The notes under the pieces were generated by a model. It was not told the origin of the DNA and ran no database searches. It worked only from the letters and a program-made list of their open reading frames with translations. Source: Vicinamibacteria bacterium (GTDB taxonomy: Bacteria > Acidobacteriota > Vicinamibacteria > Marinacidobacterales > Marinacidobacteraceae). Taken from it: a stretch of DNA of 64,000 nt. The stretch lies in assembly GCA_964291235.2 (NCBI GenBank), contig OZ219816.1, forward strand, positions 1,056,001 to 1,120,000, read 5' to 3'. The position numbers were made by a program, and so were the translations under genes. Shown here one piece after another: positions 17,620 through 23,377 of this stretch; within the stretch, counting starts at the first letter, position 1, and each line of letters starts with the position of its first letter.

Positions 17620-20211
17620 ATGCACCTGCGTCCCAGCCTCGTCCTCGTCCTGTTGGCCACCCCGCTCTTCGCCGGGCCCCAGCGCTGGCCGCCGCCGCCC
17701 ATCATCCAGGGAGTGGCGGAGGCGTATCCGCCCGCCCGTCACGGTGGGAACTACATGCACAACTACTACTTCCCGCCGGCCCCGAGCAGCACTCCGTGGG
17801 CGCCGGCCTGGTCACCGGACGGGAAATCGATCGCGGTGGCGATGTCGGGCTCGATCTGGCGGGTGGACCCCGAAACCGGGATCGCTGACGAGCTGACCTC
17901 CGGGCCCGGCTACCACTCGCTACCCACCTGGTCGCCGGACGGGAGGTTCATCGTTTTCACGGTGGACCGGAACGGCCAGAACATCGGTCTTGCGCTCGTG
18001 GATCTGACGACGGGGGAGAGCCGGATGCTGACGGACGACGACTTCCTCTACATGGACCCGGCCTTCTCCCCGGACGGGAACCGGCTCGCCTACGTCTCCA
18101 CGAAGCCGTCGGGCTACTTCAATGTCTATGTCCGCGAGTTCGAGAACGGGGAGCTCGGGTCGGAAGAGATCGCCCTCACCCGGGACGAGAACTACGGGAA
18201 AGAGCGGCTCTACTTCGGCTCCTGGGACATGCACATCACCCCGGCCTGGATGCCGGACTCCCGGGAACTCCTGATGGTTTCGAACCACGAGGTGCCGCTC
18301 GGCTCGGGGAACGTGGTCCGGACTCCGATGGCGGTGGACGGCTTCGAGGAGGGGGTCGCCGTCCTCGCCGAACAATCCCTGTACCGGACCCGTCCGGACG
18401 TCTCGATCGACGGGAAGCGGTTCATCTATTCCTCGACGGCGGGCGCGGCGGATCAGTTCTCGAACCTCTACGTGCAGCCGACCGACGGCGGATCCCCCTA
18501 CAAGCTGACCTTTTTCGAGCACGACGCCTTCCACCCCCGCTGGTCCCCGGACGGCGAGTGGATCGCCTACATCGACAATTCCGGCGGACTGCCGCAGCTC
18601 GCTCTCCTGGAAACCTACGGGGGGAAGCGCCGCGTTCTCGAGATCACCCGGCGTAACTGGAGCCGGCCCATGGGGGTGCTCTCGGTGCGCACGGTGGACG
18701 CCGCGACGGATGAGGAGGTTGCCGCCCGCATCCACCTTGAGGCTGCCGACGGGCGTTTCTACGCGCCGCCGGATGCCTACGCCCGGATCGGCGGCGCGGC
18801 GGAACACTCGTTCCACCAGGCGGGGAGTTTCCGGATGGAGGTTCCCGTCGGTGCGCTCGAGATCGAGGCGGTGCGGGGCTTCGAGTACGAGCCGATGAGT
18901 GTACGGGTGGAAATCACGGCCGGTGATGTCACCGAGTTGACCCTCCGCCTCCCGCGGATCACGGACATGGCAGCGAAGGGGTGGTGGAGCGGTTCCACCC
19001 ACGTCCACATGAACTACGCCGGAAATCTCCACAACACGCTCGAAAACCTGATGTTCATGTCGGACGCCGAGGATCAGGACGTGGTGCTGGAGCAGGTCGC
19101 CAACAAGGACAACCGCATTCTCGACTACCAGCACTTCCTTCCCGGCGGGGGCGCGCATCCGCTCTCCACGGCGGACCGGGTGCTGGTGGTGGGCCAGGAA
19201 TACCGGCCGCCCTTCTACGGCCACGTCTTCTACTTCGGCCTTGAAGAGCACCTGATCTCGCCCTACACCACCGGCTACGAGGGCACGGGAATCGAGAGTC
19301 TTTATCCGTCGAACACCGACATGTTCCGAAAGGCGAAGGCTCAGGGTGCGACGGTGGGTTACGTGCACGCCTTCTTCGGAGAAAACGATCCGCTGGTCGG
19401 CCCGGAGGGAAGTCCTGGCAGCCTCGGTGGCGCGAAGGGATACATGGTGGATGCGGCCCTCGGCACCACGGACGCGGTGGAGTGGTCCTCGGCGTCGCGG
19501 GCGGGGTTCTTCCCGTGGTACGCCACCATGAACAACGGTCTCCGGGTCACTGCCGTCGGCGGCGAGGACTCCATCAGCAACATGCAGCGGTCCAAGCTGG
19601 TCGGTTCGGTGCGCACCTACGTGCACACCGGAGAGCGCGGGCTGGATCTGGACGCCTTCCTCGAAGGCATCCGGGAGGGCAGGGCATTCGTGAGTTGCGG
19701 GCCGGTGCTCGATTTCCGGGTCAATGGACGGATACCGGGGGACGAGGTACAGCTCCCGGAGTCTGGAGGCGAGGTGGAGTGGAGCGCCTGGGTTCGCTCC
19801 TCGACCCCGCTCGAGCGGGCGTGGATCGTTTCCGGCGGCGAGGACGTAGCCGAGGTGGCGCTCTCCGAGGATCGGCGTTCGGCCCGCGCGACCGGTCGCG
19901 TCGCGATGGAGCGGAGCGGCTGGATGATTCTCCGGGCGGAGGGAGCGCCGGAGGCAGCCCGCCCGCTGGACTGCGGCTACGCCCAGGCGTTCACGAATCC
20001 GGTCTGGGTCATGGCCGGCGACCAGCCGGTCCGCAGCGCCGCTGCCGCCGACTACTCGATTCGCTGGATCGACCGGCTCCGTGAGATGGCGGAAGCGTGG
20101 GAATACTGGCGGTCGGATGCCGAAAAGGCCCACGTGTATGCCCAGTTCGACGAGGCTCGGGCGGTCTACGAGGGGTTTCTCGTTGAGGCGCGCGCCCTGG
20201 GCCGAGAATGA
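17620..20211 (+). CDS. Exported PD40/TolB-like beta-propeller fused to CehA/McbA-family metallohydrolase
   Basis: Repeated PAWSPDG-like motifs; THVHMNY, GQEYRP..GH, YVHAF, GGEDS metal-site motifs; C-terminal AFTNPVWV. Confidence 0.75.
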   Translation: MHLRPSLVLVLLATPLFAGPQRWPPPPIIQGVAEAYPPARHGGNYMHNYYFPPAPSSTPWAPAWSPDGKSIAVAMSGSIWRVDPETGIADELTSGPGYHSLPTWSPDGRFIVFTVDRNGQNIGLALVDLTTGESRMLTDDDFLYMDPAFSPDGNRLAYVSTKPSGYFNVYVREFENGELGSEEIALTRDENYGKERLYFGSWDMHITPAWMPDSRELLMVSNHEVPLGSGNVVRTPMAVDGFEEGVAVLAEQSLYRTRPDVSIDGKRFIYSSTAGAADQFSNLYVQPTDGGSPYKLTFFEHDAFHPRWSPDGEWIAYIDNSGGLPQLALLETYGGKRRVLEITRRNWSRPMGVLSVRTVDAATDEEVAARIHLEAADGRFYAPPDAYARIGGAAEHSFHQAGSFRMEVPVGALEIEAVRGFEYEPMSVRVEITAGDVTELTLRLPRITDMAAKGWWSGSTHVHMNYAGNLHNTLENLMFMSDAEDQDVVLEQVANKDNRILDYQHFLPGGGAHPLSTADRVLVVGQEYRPPFYGHVFYFGLEEHLISPYTTGYEGTGIESLYPSNTDMFRKAKAQGATVGYVHAFFGENDPLVGPEGSPGSLGGAKGYMVDAALGTTDAVEWSSASRAGFFPWYATMNNGLRVTAVGGEDSISNMQRSKLVGSVRTYVHTGERGLDLDAFLEGIREGRAFVSCGPVLDFRVNGRIPGDEVQLPESGGEVEWSAWVRSSTPLERAWIVSGGEDVAEVALSEDRRSARATGRVAMERSGWMILRAEGAPEAARPLDCGYAQAFTNPVWVMAGDQPVRSAAAADYSIRWIDRLREMAEAWEYWRSDAEKAHVYAQFDEARAVYEGFLVEARALGRE

Positions 20212-20284: not shown

Positions 20285-20626
20285 ATGAGCCTGATGGGAC
20301 GGGCCCTCGGGACGAAGGCCCCGTTCGTTCCGCCGAATCAGATCGACGATGTGCTGCGCGACGACGAGGTACTTCTGCTGGATGTGCGGACCGCCGTGGA
20401 GCTGGCCGAATCGGGGACCATCCCGGGGGCGCTCCACATCCATCTCGGAGAACTCGCCGACCGGCTCGACGAGTTGCCCCGCGGCCAGCCGGTGCTGACC
20501 ACCTGAATGGTGGGCCCCCGGGCTGCGCGTGCCGCGGCCATTCTGGAGAAGGCAGGTTTCGAAGTCGTGGGTTATTGCGGCCTCAAGCAATACGCGGGCG
20601 CCCGGGAGTACCGCCCGCTCAACTGA
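20285..20626 (+). CDS. Rhodanese-domain selenoprotein (Sec at TGA 20504-20506), cytoplasmic, 113 aa
   Basis: LLDVRT..E...GTIPGALHIHL..L...LDELP..PVLTT-[TGA]-MVGPRAARAAAILEKAGFEVVGYCGL; read-through completes the rhodanese fold; hairpin follows the TGA. Confidence 0.85.
20507..20545 (+). promoter_or_regulatory. Putative bacterial SECIS element 1
   Basis: GGCTGCG-CGTGC-CGCGGCC stem-loop; loop starts 21 nt after the UGA and contains G. Confidence 0.7.
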
Positions 20627-20647
20627 TTCCCAATAGGAGGGTCCACG

Positions 20648-21100
20648 ATGAAGAGGACTTTTTCCCTCGCCGCGGCTGCCCTGACGGCGCTCGGTTGGGG
20701 CTGTGGCGGAGGCGAGCCGGCGGCTGAAATGCCCGCGGCCACCGAAGAGGCCACGCCGGAGCCGACGCCGGAGCCGACGCCGGAGCCAGCGCCGCGAGTC
20801 GAGGCCGAGGACATTGACGCCGCTCTCGCGAACGGCGCCGTTCTCCTCGATGTGCGCACCGATGAAGAACTCGCCGAGCACGGCACCATCGAGGGCTTCG
20901 TCCACATTCCGATCGATGAACTGGAGGCGAGGATCGGCGAACTCCCGGTGGGAGTTCCCATCCTCACCGCTTGACAGGGTGGCGGAAGAGCCGCGCGTGC
21001 CGCGGAGCTACTACAGGCGAACGGACACGAAGTCGTTGGTTTTTGTGGCCTGATGGGCTATGAAGGCGAGCGGGTCTATCCCGGGGCAGCGGAAGACTGA
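20648..21100 (+). CDS. Rhodanese-domain selenoprotein, lipoprotein (Sec at TGA 20972-20974), 150 aa
   Basis: AGGAGG RBS; lipobox-like LGWGC; EPTP-repeat linker; LLDVRT..GTIEGFVHIP...PILTA-[TGA]-QGGGRAARAAELLQANGHEVVGFCGL. Confidence 0.85.
20975..21010 (+). promoter_or_regulatory. Putative bacterial SECIS element 2
   Basis: CCGCG-CGTGC-CGCGG stem-loop with the same loop and the same 21-nt spacing from the UGA as element 1. Confidence 0.7.
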
Positions 21101-21104
21101 TTCG

Positions 21105-22403
21105 TCAGATCTGAACCGTCCGGAAGCCCGCCAACACGTCGCGGCGATCCGGACTGAAGAAATTTCGATAGCGGCCGGTCAGCAGCCGGCCGCGCGTCGC
21201 CCAGGCGCCGCCGCGCAGCACCTTGGTCTCGTGGAAACCGGCTTCGGAGTATTCCCGGTAGGCATCGGGACGGAAACCGGGGAACGGCCTGAAGGTGTCC
21301 CCGGTCCACTCCCAGACATTGCCAATCATCTGCCGGCAGCCGAAGGCGCTGTCCCCTTCGGGCAGCGCTCCCACGTCGAGGCAGCCCAGCGCCCAACCGT
21401 CCAGGTTCGCCCGCCGAGGGTCGGGAGGCGTTTCTCCCCATGGGTACGACCGCTTCTTCGGGGCGAGGGCGTCCCCGGCGGGTTCGCCGAGGGCGGCCGT
21501 TTCCCACTCGGCTTCCGAAGGGAGCCGCCGGCCGGCCCAGGCACAGTAGGCATTTGCCTCGAACCAGTTCACGTGGATGACGGGTTCGTCGGGCGCCAGC
21601 GGGCGGACCCGGTCGAAACGGCGTACCCGGAACCCGCCTTCCCGGTCGGGGCGCCAATAGACAGGATGCGCGGCGTCGGCTCGTTCCCGCCAATTCCAGC
21701 CCGCCCGGCTCCAGAACTCACGCTCGCGGTAGCCTCCGGCTGTCACGAATTCGGCGAACTCCGCGTTCGTGACCGGGGCTTTCGCGATCGCAAACGACTG
21801 GACGCGGAACGGATGCGCCCACTTCTCGTTGTCGTAGAGGAACGGTGCGTCCGGCTCAGCCCCCAGCCGAAACGTCCCGCCGGGAACGCGGGCGTCCCCC
21901 GGATGGCGGCCGCCCGGCGCTCGCCGGGGGCGCTCCCGTCCCAGAGCCGGGGCCGGGTAGCCGAGGGTCTGCCGGGAGTAGATGTACGCCTCGGTGTGCA
22001 TGTCCTCGTGGAAGGTGGCGAACTGGTACATGAAGCTGTCGCTCTCGGTCGCGAGGTTCTGATCCAACCGGTCGAGGCAGCGGCACTTGACCCTTTCGGC
22101 GTAGCCGATCACTTCCTCCATGCCGAGGAGAGGGAGGTCCCAGCGCAGTTCCTGGGCAACGGTCGCCGAGTCATAGATTTCGTCCCCCCTGGGCAGGATC
22201 GCTTCGCACCCGTGGAGTTCGCGCAGGATGAACCTCTCGTAGAACCACGCGACGTGCCCGATTTCCCAGCGCAGCGGGTTGACGATGCGCAGCCGCGACC
22301 CCATCCACTGGTCCTCGTCGAGCCCGACAATCAGTGCGAGACTGCGCCGGTGGGCATCTTCCATGATGGCGGCCAGGTGGTCGGCCGGGACACGCTTGGT
22401 CAT
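21105..22403 (-). CDS. senA: Selenoneine synthase SenA-like (EgtB/OvoA-family DinB + FGE-sulfatase non-heme iron enzyme)
   Basis: NPLRWEIGHVAWF and FHEDMHTEAYIYSRQTLGY His iron ligands; RRLPSEAEWE, GNVWEWT, VLRGGAWAT, YRNFF, AGFRT; adjacent to senB-like gene. Confidence 0.82.
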   Translation of the reverse strand: MTKRVPADHLAAIMEDAHRRSLALIVGLDEDQWMGSRLRIVNPLRWEIGHVAWFYERFILRELHGCEAILPRGDEIYDSATVAQELRWDLPLLGMEEVIGYAERVKCRCLDRLDQNLATESDSFMYQFATFHEDMHTEAYIYSRQTLGYPAPALGRERPRRAPGGRHPGDARVPGGTFRLGAEPDAPFLYDNEKWAHPFRVQSFAIAKAPVTNAEFAEFVTAGGYREREFWSRAGWNWRERADAAHPVYWRPDREGGFRVRRFDRVRPLAPDEPVIHVNWFEANAYCAWAGRRLPSEAEWETAALGEPAGDALAPKKRSYPWGETPPDPRRANLDGWALGCLDVGALPEGDSAFGCRQMIGNVWEWTGDTFRPFPGFRPDAYREYSEAGFHETKVLRGGAWATRGRLLTGRYRNFFSPDRRDVLAGFRTVQI

Positions 22404-22423: not shown

Positions 22424-23377
22424 GTGCGAATCATTGTAGTAACCCCCGCCGGAGCCAACTCGCGCGCCGGAAACCGGATCACCGCGGTCCGCTGGGCGCG
22501 GATGCTGCGGTCGCTGGGGCACCGAGTCGCCGTCCGGACGGAATGGGACGGCGGGAGCGCGGATGTGCTGATCGCGCTCCACGCCTGGCGGAGCGCTGCT
22601 TCCGTTGCCCGCTACCGATCCCGTTGCCCGAACGGTTCCCTGGTGGTCGCGTTGACCGGCACCGATGTGCACGGCTTTCTCGGCACCCATGAAGAGACGA
22701 CCCGGAGGTCGCTTGAACACGCGGACGTGCTGGTGGCGCTGCACGATCTGGTGTCCGATGCCATCCCACCGGAGTTTCGCAACAAGGTCCAGGTGGTGCA
22801 TCAGTCGGTGAAGAACCGCGGTATATCGCGCGATCCGTCGAGACGCACGTTTGACGTGTGCGTCGTCGGACACCTGCGCCGGGAAAAGGATCCGCTGCGG
22901 GCGGCGTACGCGGCGCGAGCGATCCCGGCGGCGTCCCGGTTGCGCGTTTTGCACGCCGGTGGAGCTCGGGATCCGGATTGGGGGGTCGCTGCGCAGGAGG
23001 AGATGGCGCGAAACCCGCGTTACCGCTGGCGCGGTGAACTTCCGGGGTGGCGCGTGCGCCGGCTCTACGCGAAAGCCCGGGCGATGGTGATCTCTTCGGT
23101 CGTGGAGGGGGGCGCCAATGTGGTGTCCGAGGCGGTGGTGGCCGGACTCCCGGTCATTGCGTCGCGCATCCCGGGGAACGTCGGCCTTCTCGGCCCCGGA
23201 CACCCGGGCTATTTCCCCCCGCAGGATACCGGGGCTCTCCGCGATCTCCTGTGGTGCGCGGAGAGTGATCCCGGTTTCCTCGAGGACCTCATGCGGCACG
23301 GGGCGGCGCGAGCGCCGCTGTTCGCCCCCGAGCGTGAACGCGAGGCCTGGCGCCGGCTACTCGCGGCGCTCTCGTAG
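22424..23377 (+). CDS. senB: Selenosugar synthase SenB-like (TIGR04348-type glycosyltransferase)
   Basis: IVVTPA...SRAGNRITAVRWARML, IALHAWRS, LTGTD, VGHLRREKDP, SS..EGGANVVSEA, GNVGLLG..HPGYFP. Confidence 0.88.
   Translation: MRIIVVTPAGANSRAGNRITAVRWARMLRSLGHRVAVRTEWDGGSADVLIALHAWRSAASVARYRSRCPNGSLVVALTGTDVHGFLGTHEETTRRSLEHADVLVALHDLVSDAIPPEFRNKVQVVHQSVKNRGISRDPSRRTFDVCVVGHLRREKDPLRAAYAARAIPAASRLRVLHAGGARDPDWGVAAQEEMARNPRYRWRGELPGWRVRRLYAKARAMVISSVVEGGANVVSEAVVAGLPVIASRIPGNVGLLGPGHPGYFPPQDTGALRDLLWCAESDPGFLEDLMRHGAARAPLFAPEREREAWRRLLAALS

Follow-up and report, generated by a model that had tools for sequence, protein, structure and literature searches.

The window analyzed here is the whole 64,000-nucleotide stretch G000:C2:1056001-1120000, which belongs to a source genome (G000, an uncultured Vicinamibacteria acidobacterium) of 3.45 Mb with 68% G+C. 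Within this window, two adjacent rhodanese genes were found on the forward strand. Gene A (rhdA; 20285-20626) starts with ATG, ends with the stop codon TGA at 20624-20626, and encodes a single-domain rhodanese of 113 aa. Gene B (rhdB; 20648-21100) ends with TGA at 21098-21100 and encodes 150 aa, comprising a rhodanese domain preceded by a predicted signal peptide and a Pro/Glu-rich linker. The two genes are spaced by 21 nt, and a GGAGG ribosome-binding site, read from the sequence, lies on the same strand at 20636-20640, 7 nt upstream of the ATG of gene B. Genes A and B likely form one operon; a scan for promoters and terminators yielded nothing useful.

Each gene contains one in-frame TGA

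The lengths given above are those obtained when one internal TGA in each gene is read through. As conventional open reading frames, gene A (20285-20506) and gene B (20648-20974) would encode only 73 and 108 aa, respectively, and both frames are closed by TGA. The codons in question are codon 74 of gene A (20504-20506, forward strand) and codon 109 of gene B (20972-20974, forward strand), each of which falls in the column of the catalytic Cys and is predicted to encode selenocysteine (Sec, U). An earlier note on this DNA had pointed out that the ORF track cuts both genes at these two TGA codons, and our analysis of the reading frames confirmed this. When TGA was read as U, gene A yielded ...PVLTT-U-MVGPRAARAAAILE... 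and gene B yielded ...PILTA-U-QGGGRAARAAELL..., with exactly one internal TGA per gene. The same note had proposed that about 40 further residues lead to a proper stop; the read-through adds 39 residues in gene A and 41 in gene B, with the qualification that the terminal stop is, in both cases, TGA as well.

When the read-through proteins were compared with Pfam, the Rhodanese family PF00581 (gathering cut-off, 22.2 bits) matched gene A at residues 18-94 (E 8.4e-12, 45.9 bits) and gene B at residues 53-129 (E 1e-10, 42.4 bits). Both matches were above the cut-off, and both span the TGA. Moreover, A and B align over 95 residues, of which 55% are identical, and their TGA codons share one column. 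The N-terminus of gene A, MSLMGRALGT, is kept in its orthologues.

The sequence downstream of the TGA completes the rhodanese fold

An AlphaFold2 model of gene A was built from a 35-row alignment with Cys in place of Sec. The model (pLDDT 91.6, pTM 0.84) displayed a complete rhodanese fold, in which residue 74 ends the strand formed by residues 70-74 and is followed, past the TGA, by a helix (78-89) and a strand (94-99). Because this helix and strand are encoded 3' of the TGA, the 73-aa product would lack part of the core. Foldseek matched the model to rhodanese domains with a probability of 1.00, and the best matches were the rhodanese domains of CoADR-RHD (3icr; rmsd 1.2 Å over 94 columns, 35% identity) and of persulfide reductases. 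Sequence-profile searches matched thiosulfate sulfurtransferases, GlpE, and PspE. The catalytic loop in both A and B reads U-x4-R and thus has six residues. The suggestion that the TGA occupies the position of the rhodanese catalytic Cys, just past a beta-strand, was borne out by the model, where the TGA follows strand 70-74, and by distant homologues from other phyla, which carry Cys in the TGA column within the motif C-x-x-G-x-R-S.

Conservation of the TGA codon and its pairing with Cys

Conservation was examined in a set of 41 related genomes, drawn from the same GTDB family together with 16 genomes of two sister families. In the same family, 24 genomes (G000 included) contained the pair, with two matches each and one TGA in every match; one family genome, G007 (89% complete, with 1105 bases withheld), gave no match to the pair. 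All 20 relatives' loci that were examined have TGA at the identical codon in A and in B; 3' of it, none of the 20 differs in the peptide U-MVGPRAARAAAILE of A or in U-QGGGRAARAAELL of B. In the sister families, a single exported form (U-NGGGRAARAAALL), likewise with TGA, is present once or twice in 6 of the 16 genomes. A search of an even sample of 401 genomes from the phylum gave 27 matches at E <= 1e-14 in 24 genomes; 26 of these matches carried one TGA. Altogether, 67 of 67 distinct homologous sequences, coming from dozens of independent assemblies, have TGA at the Sec codon (25/25 distinct A-type and 24/24 distinct B-type sequences among them), and TAA, TAG, or a sense codon was found at this position in none of the 67. 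Since TGA occupies the same codon in both genes of 20/20 loci and in 67/67 distinct sequences, chance can be excluded, in agreement with the earlier argument that independent nonsense mutations at this codon are unlikely. The sequence past the TGA was also strongly conserved in the relatives.

Pairing of the TGA with Cys was assessed in 35 homologue loci. At the catalytic column, 12 loci had TGA and 21 had Cys, and in the remaining 2 the Cys was one column off in the BLAST alignment; column C74 was invariant across 35 aligned sequences when U was counted as C. A Cys form of the same subfamily was found in P0078, a metagenomic protein of 104 aa (...ILTACNGGGRAARAAA...). The proposed Cys/TGA pairing was recovered both among the 35 loci and within the subfamily itself. 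In another metagenomic relative, P0065 (134 aa), the catalytic column contains no Cys and no stop (...ILVLGASGDARAARAA...), which may reflect either loss of activity or a sequencing artefact.

A quick tree was computed from 86 rows, after removal of duplicates, of sequences containing X, and of those with under 56 upstream codons. A-type sequences formed one group (SH-aLRT 92) and B-type sequences another (97), and a split with a support of 97 set the Sec subfamily apart from seven generic Cys rhodaneses. P0078, the Cys form, nested in the exported N-type group, in an unresolved fork. Genomes G027, G036, G039, and G040 (loci L079, L081, L082, L083, L084, and L085) contain near-identical copies of the exported Sec-rhodanese, two per genome, across two GTDB families. 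The exported copies in the sister families often adjoin integrase or transposase genes (rve, DDE, ISL3), and these neighbours suggest that the copies have recently been mobile. The copy at L085 has a stop within the signal peptide.

A conserved hairpin follows the in-frame UGA codons

A SECIS-like hairpin was found downstream of the in-frame UGA in both genes; the earlier note had named a search for such an element as a check. In gene A, the hairpin (20521-20539, forward strand) has a 7-bp stem and the loop CGUGC (20528-20532); numbered from the U of UGA, positions 18-24 of the stem pair with 30-36. In gene B, the hairpin (20991-21005, forward strand) has a 5-bp GC stem pairing positions 20-24 with 30-34, and again the loop CGUGC (20996-21000). 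The calculated energies were -12.4 kcal/mol (A) and -7.8 kcal/mol (B). This GC hairpin, which begins 15-16 nt past the UGA and has the loop CG(U/G)GC, is near-invariant in the 67 distinct sequences; the string GCCGCGCG(U/G)GCCGCGG, at positions 19-34 from the U of UGA, is common to all three gene types, and the loop U is replaced by G in 6 of 25 A-type sequences. RNAalifold independently predicted the pairs 20-34 to 24-30, with positions 25-29 as the loop. The terminal UGA of A and that of B are both without such a hairpin.

A model of bacterial SECIS elements given in a section of PMC13188914 describes a loop of 3-9 nt, a stem of 4-16 bp, a spacing of 16-37 nt, and an MFE of <= -7.5 kcal/mol, with G in the first two loop positions, then G or U. 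The hairpins of A and B agree with this model in having a 5-nt loop with G at loop position 2 followed by U/G, and a stem of 5-7 bp. The UGA-to-loop spacing, 21 nt, also lies inside the range of the model, and the two energies are within its MFE limit. When the 60 nt past each TGA were folded singly with ViennaRNA, the MFE structures did not pick the hairpin, and these folds were no more stable than those of shuffled sequences (z +1.80 for A and -1.49 for B).

Base pairing was then tabulated across the 67 distinct sequences. The five core pairs were formed in 334 of 335 cells. Pair 24-30 changed from GC to AU once and to CG once, and pair 21-33 changed from CG to UG three times and was broken once. 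The outer pair 19-35 was formed in 50/67 sequences, and pair 18-36 was formed in 33/67 (AU in 16, GC in 9, CG in 7, and GU in 1) and unpaired in 34. The covariation score (0.073) was greater than that of 500/500 shuffles and of the slid controls, except the control slid by +2 (0.070). Because 3 of the 7 stem pairs never vary, so that covariation is thin, the case for an RNA element rests mainly on the invariance of synonymous sites. For the four-fold degenerate codons at +6 to +10, the third-position entropy was 0.36 (A), 0.00 (B), and 0.00 (single exported form) bits, compared with 1.17, 0.73, and 0.97 bits, respectively, for the other four-fold codons of the same genes. In gene B, the 33 nt past the TGA differ in only 2 columns among 20 orthologues. 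This hairpin is an unusually clean case of a SECIS freezing both the RNA and the encoded peptide (AARAA).

A covariance model built from the hairpin, when run against the whole genome, recovered the two known sites (64.3 and 62.6 bits) and no other, the next match scoring 19.1 bits (E 1.8). Given that this model finds just two sites, other Sec genes of G000 use different hairpins. Outside the window, two more genes of this genome, at G000:C2:1623975 and G000:C2:1926748, were seen to have an in-frame TGA and then a hairpin. They encode a Cys/His-rich protein (loop GGUCC) and a MerB-like protein (loop GAAGA), and checks of their frames and folds placed the loops at similar distances (~+21-25 and +28-32). 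A genome-wide screen for further Sec genes that combined codon-position GC with hairpins failed to recover the two known sites, and it was dropped because GC3 was not discriminating in G000.

Sec machinery and TGA usage in the source genome

The genome was searched for the components of Sec insertion, whose presence the earlier note had named as a check on its reading. All were found over their cut-offs: selA (498 bits; cut-off, 268), selB (285.7 bits, or 311 with the C-terminal piece in frame; cut-off, 242), selD (249.5 bits; cut-off, 125), and tRNA-Sec (69.7 bits; cut-off, 47; ARAGORN anticodon tca). TGA is the terminal stop of 8 of 13 neighbouring genes, and internal TGA codons were absent from all 13 neighbouring genes checked, which argues that the codon is not reassigned genome-wide.

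Predicted localisation of A and B

Gene A is without a signal peptide, and its product is predicted from the sequence to be cytoplasmic. Gene B begins with MKRTFSLAAAALTALGWGC, followed by the Pro/Glu-rich linker. A lipoprotein-like signal peptide (MKRTFSLAAAALTALGWG-C19; 20648-20704, forward strand) was predicted from alignments inspected by eye. In these alignments, the Cys past the hydrophobic stretch was retained in B-type and most single exported forms. The lipobox in relatives reads L-V-A-C, L-F-A-C, or A-I-A-C, and that of gene B in the window is the non-canonical G-W-G-C; a few exported forms have an Ala-x-Ala-type signal instead. Gene B is accordingly a candidate for export as a lipoprotein.

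The pair adjoins selenoneine genes in the source genus

Downstream of gene B, and convergent with it, lies senA, encoding selenoneine synthase (21105-22403, reverse strand; NCBIfam NF041186, 475 bits versus a cut-off of 420). It is followed by the divergent senB, encoding selenosugar synthase (22424-23377, forward strand; TIGR04348, 399 bits versus a cut-off of 300). The start codons of senA and senB are ~20 nt apart. No selD-like senC adjoins them, and the single SelD is encoded on another contig. Upstream of the pair, gene 17620-20211 encodes an 863-aa protein that combines a TolB-like beta-propeller with a CehA/McbA metallohydrolase domain; the gene at the corresponding position in sister genera encodes a large Peptidase_M14 protein.

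The distribution of SenA relative to the pair was then compared across genomes. In the source genus, SenA lies ~30-280 nt from gene B in 15/15 genomes with the pair (G000 included). In other genera of the same family, the pair is present in 9/9 genomes and SenA exceeds the cut-off in 0/9, with 3 of these 9 giving no SenA match even at E <= 1e-30; the pair lies there in the same neighbourhood, from which senA and senB are missing. Six sister-family genomes have the exported form, and in these SenA is found either on a different contig or at a distance of 0.3 Mb or more. Among 23 further genomes of the phylum with a Sec-rhodanese, SenA exceeded the cut-off in 1, on another contig. Since the linkage to sen genes is confined to the source genus, we regard the adjacency as a lineage-specific context and not as part of the unit. 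A SenA match over the cut-off in another genome (G040:C2:1214434-1215657; 469.5 bits) has one TGA inside, which could reflect a broken gene, a mis-set boundary, or another case of recoding.

The SelD of G000 is a 778-aa protein fused to an N-terminal pyridine-nucleotide-disulfide oxidoreductase domain (L011 220-2556; G000:C1:1306478-1308811), and its gene contains no in-frame TGA. Fused SelD is widespread in the phylum, both with and without the rhodanese, and is thus uninformative on a link between the two. In many other members of the phylum, SelD is unfused, and its gene contains one TGA. More generally, the neighbourhood of the pair in the family is of a housekeeping kind (peptidases and aminotransferases), and neither the family neighbourhoods nor the neighbours of the exported copies contained a conserved partner gene that would name a substrate.

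Discussion

The earlier note had read this locus as two hidden selenoproteins in tandem, and that reading is supported and very likely on the sequence evidence assembled here. Specifically, we consider, with a probability of about 0.87, that A and B are intact single-domain rhodanese genes whose in-frame UGA would be decoded as Sec by SelB and tRNA-Sec via the conserved GC hairpin. SelB and tRNA-Sec would insert Sec at the in-frame UGA of each mRNA, and the terminal UGA of each gene, which is without the hairpin, would end translation. The resulting proteins would carry a selenol in place of the catalytic thiol. Such a selenol may hold sulfane sulfur (or selenium) as an Se-S or Se-Se adduct and hand it to an acceptor, comparable to the persulfide of a Cys-rhodanese. 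The product of gene A would act in the cytoplasm, and that of gene B, once exported, would be held by a lipid anchor on the periplasmic side. The function of the pair is likely to be the transfer of sulfane sulfur or selenium.

It is highly improbable that the two TGA codons are true stops, which would make A and B truncated or decaying pseudogenes, or that they are read through otherwise than as Sec, or stem from an assembly error. Every public gene call seen does halt at the TGA, and TGA is the usual stop codon of G000; however, TGA is present in each of 67 distinct sequences, which come from dozens of separate assemblies and include no TAA, TAG, or sense codon at that place, and conservation extends over the 39-41 residues past it, which complete the fold. 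A full Sec machinery and a SECIS-type hairpin are present as well, and the 13 neighbouring genes checked have no internal TGA. Another unlikely explanation is that A and B are Sec-dependent redox enzymes and not transferases, for example selenol/thiol oxidoreductases, in which the conserved Cys of the C-terminal G-F/Y-C-G-L motif would be the resolving residue, or rhodaneses of the arsenate-reductase or phosphatase type. The loop U-x4-R has the length found in sulfurtransferases, whereas Cdc25 and arsenate reductases have C-x5-R. The nearest solved relatives, moreover, are sulfurtransferase or persulfide-handling domains. The Cys of the G-F/Y-C-G-L/I/M motif is kept in all B-, N-, and T-type sequences seen, but it is Ser in most A-type orthologues and is thus not essential for the A form. 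A passage in PMC9312934 considers most bacterial selenoproteins to be redox proteins, which we count in favour of a redox role.

The selenium genes beside gene B invite the proposal that the pair is a dedicated selenium-delivery module for selenoneine, in which exported B captures selenium and A passes it to SelD for use by SenB and SenA. A selenium-donor function has been proposed for Se-substituted rhodanese, which forms from selenite and glutathione, and this favours such a role. So do the scores of senA (475 versus 420 bits) and senB (399 versus 300 bits) directly adjoining gene B, the proximity of SenA to gene B in 15/15 genomes of the genus, and the fusion of the sole SelD to a reductase domain, resembling the combination of reductase and rhodanese in the closest solved structures. 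Outside the source genus, however, this association dissolves: 9/9 genomes of other genera keep the pair, in the same neighbourhood, with neither senA nor senB there and with SenA over the cut-off in none, the 6 sister-family genomes have SenA unlinked to the exported form (on a different contig, or no closer than 0.3 Mb), and only 1 of the 23 further phylum genomes has SenA over the cut-off, on another contig. Fused SelD, for its part, is common in the phylum whether or not the rhodanese is present. We therefore regard a dedicated selenoneine module as improbable. We would also give little credence to a broader, speculative scheme, namely a two-compartment relay of selenium (or sulfane sulfur) in which lipid-anchored and cytoplasmic Sec-rhodaneses would scavenge at the envelope and feed the reductase-fused SelD, with senA and senB having been recruited beside the pair in this genus to form a selenium-handling island.

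The reading preferred here, two Sec-decoding rhodanese genes, also bears on public annotation. Among the public calls for the best 73 homologues of gene A, 71 are fragments of 70-77 aa, and A-type calls are named 'hypothetical' or 'rhodanese-like domain-containing protein'. The present analysis thus corrects a systematic annotation error, in which dozens of public records stop at the predicted Sec codon. The earlier note had remarked that Sec-containing rhodaneses are known and that gene callers miss them; these fragmentary calls, and the five forms described in the relevant section of PMC13188914, bear out both points.

Rhodanese selenoproteins were predicted in 2004-2005, and a table in PMC1088965 gives three sequences. 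The 2026 review PMC13188914, in its section on these proteins, distinguishes five rhodanese selenoprotein forms, two of them with the motif UxxG: form 2 (MBM9537886.1) and form 4 (MCY3690685.1, a rhodanese-related sulfurtransferase from the Sargasso Sea set). UxxG rhodanese selenoproteins were first reported in PMC1088965. The portions of the reviews considered here place rhodanese selenoproteins under 'predicted' and list none with a tested function. In the accessible part of the supplement of PMC1088965, neither 'rhodanese' nor 'RAARAA' was present, and a literature search for selenoneine or selenoproteins in Acidobacteria or Vicinamibacteria showed nothing relevant among the papers listed (15 of 819). 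Two of the other described forms were considered as homes for A and B and rejected. NF041203 (rhodanese_LYCAU, form 3, rhodanese-related (seleno)protein), the only small-rhodanese selenoprotein model in NCBIfam, describes a small rhodanese selenoprotein like A and B, but A and B scored 19.9 and 12.7 bits against its cut-off of 115 and have T-T-U and T-A-U, not CxU. The TsoB rhodanese/DsbD fusion-like family (NF045694, form 5, UxxxxU) gave no match at E <= 0.1, and A and B have one TGA per gene.

Among proteins of known structure, the rhodanese domains of the CoA-disulfide reductase-RHD and the NADH-dependent persulfide reductase (3icr and 3nt6) are the closest to the A model (rmsd 1.2-1.3 Å, 94 columns, 33-35% identity). 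Those domains are fused to a flavoprotein reductase and use Cys, whereas the A/B domain is free-standing with a predicted Sec. The single-domain E. coli sulfurtransferases GlpE (1gmx; profile E 3.6e-12) and PspE (2jtq; 2.6e-12) resemble A and B in their rhodanese fold of ~100 aa, in the six-residue catalytic loop, and in the existence of cytoplasmic and periplasmic (PspE) versions, but they have Cys where A and B have a predicted Sec. The C-terminus of A and B is also shortened and ends in G-F/Y-C/S-G-L...Y, in contrast to the usual rhodanese, which ends in a ...GG..AW helix. Forms 2 and 4, compared here by their description in PMC13188914, share with A and B the PF00581 domain, a single Sec at the position of the catalytic Cys, and the UxxG motif (U-M-V-G in A and U-Q-G-G in B), and they were likewise predicted from Sec/Cys pairing and a SECIS hairpin. 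The tandem of a cytoplasmic and an exported copy is a feature of A and B that the relevant sections of PMC13188914 and PMC1088965 do not describe for forms 2 and 4. Since both the protein family and the mechanism of recoding have been described before, the pair does not represent a new kind of system; what it would add to the rhodanese selenoproteins is an Acidobacteriota-wide clade with cytoplasmic and exported copies.
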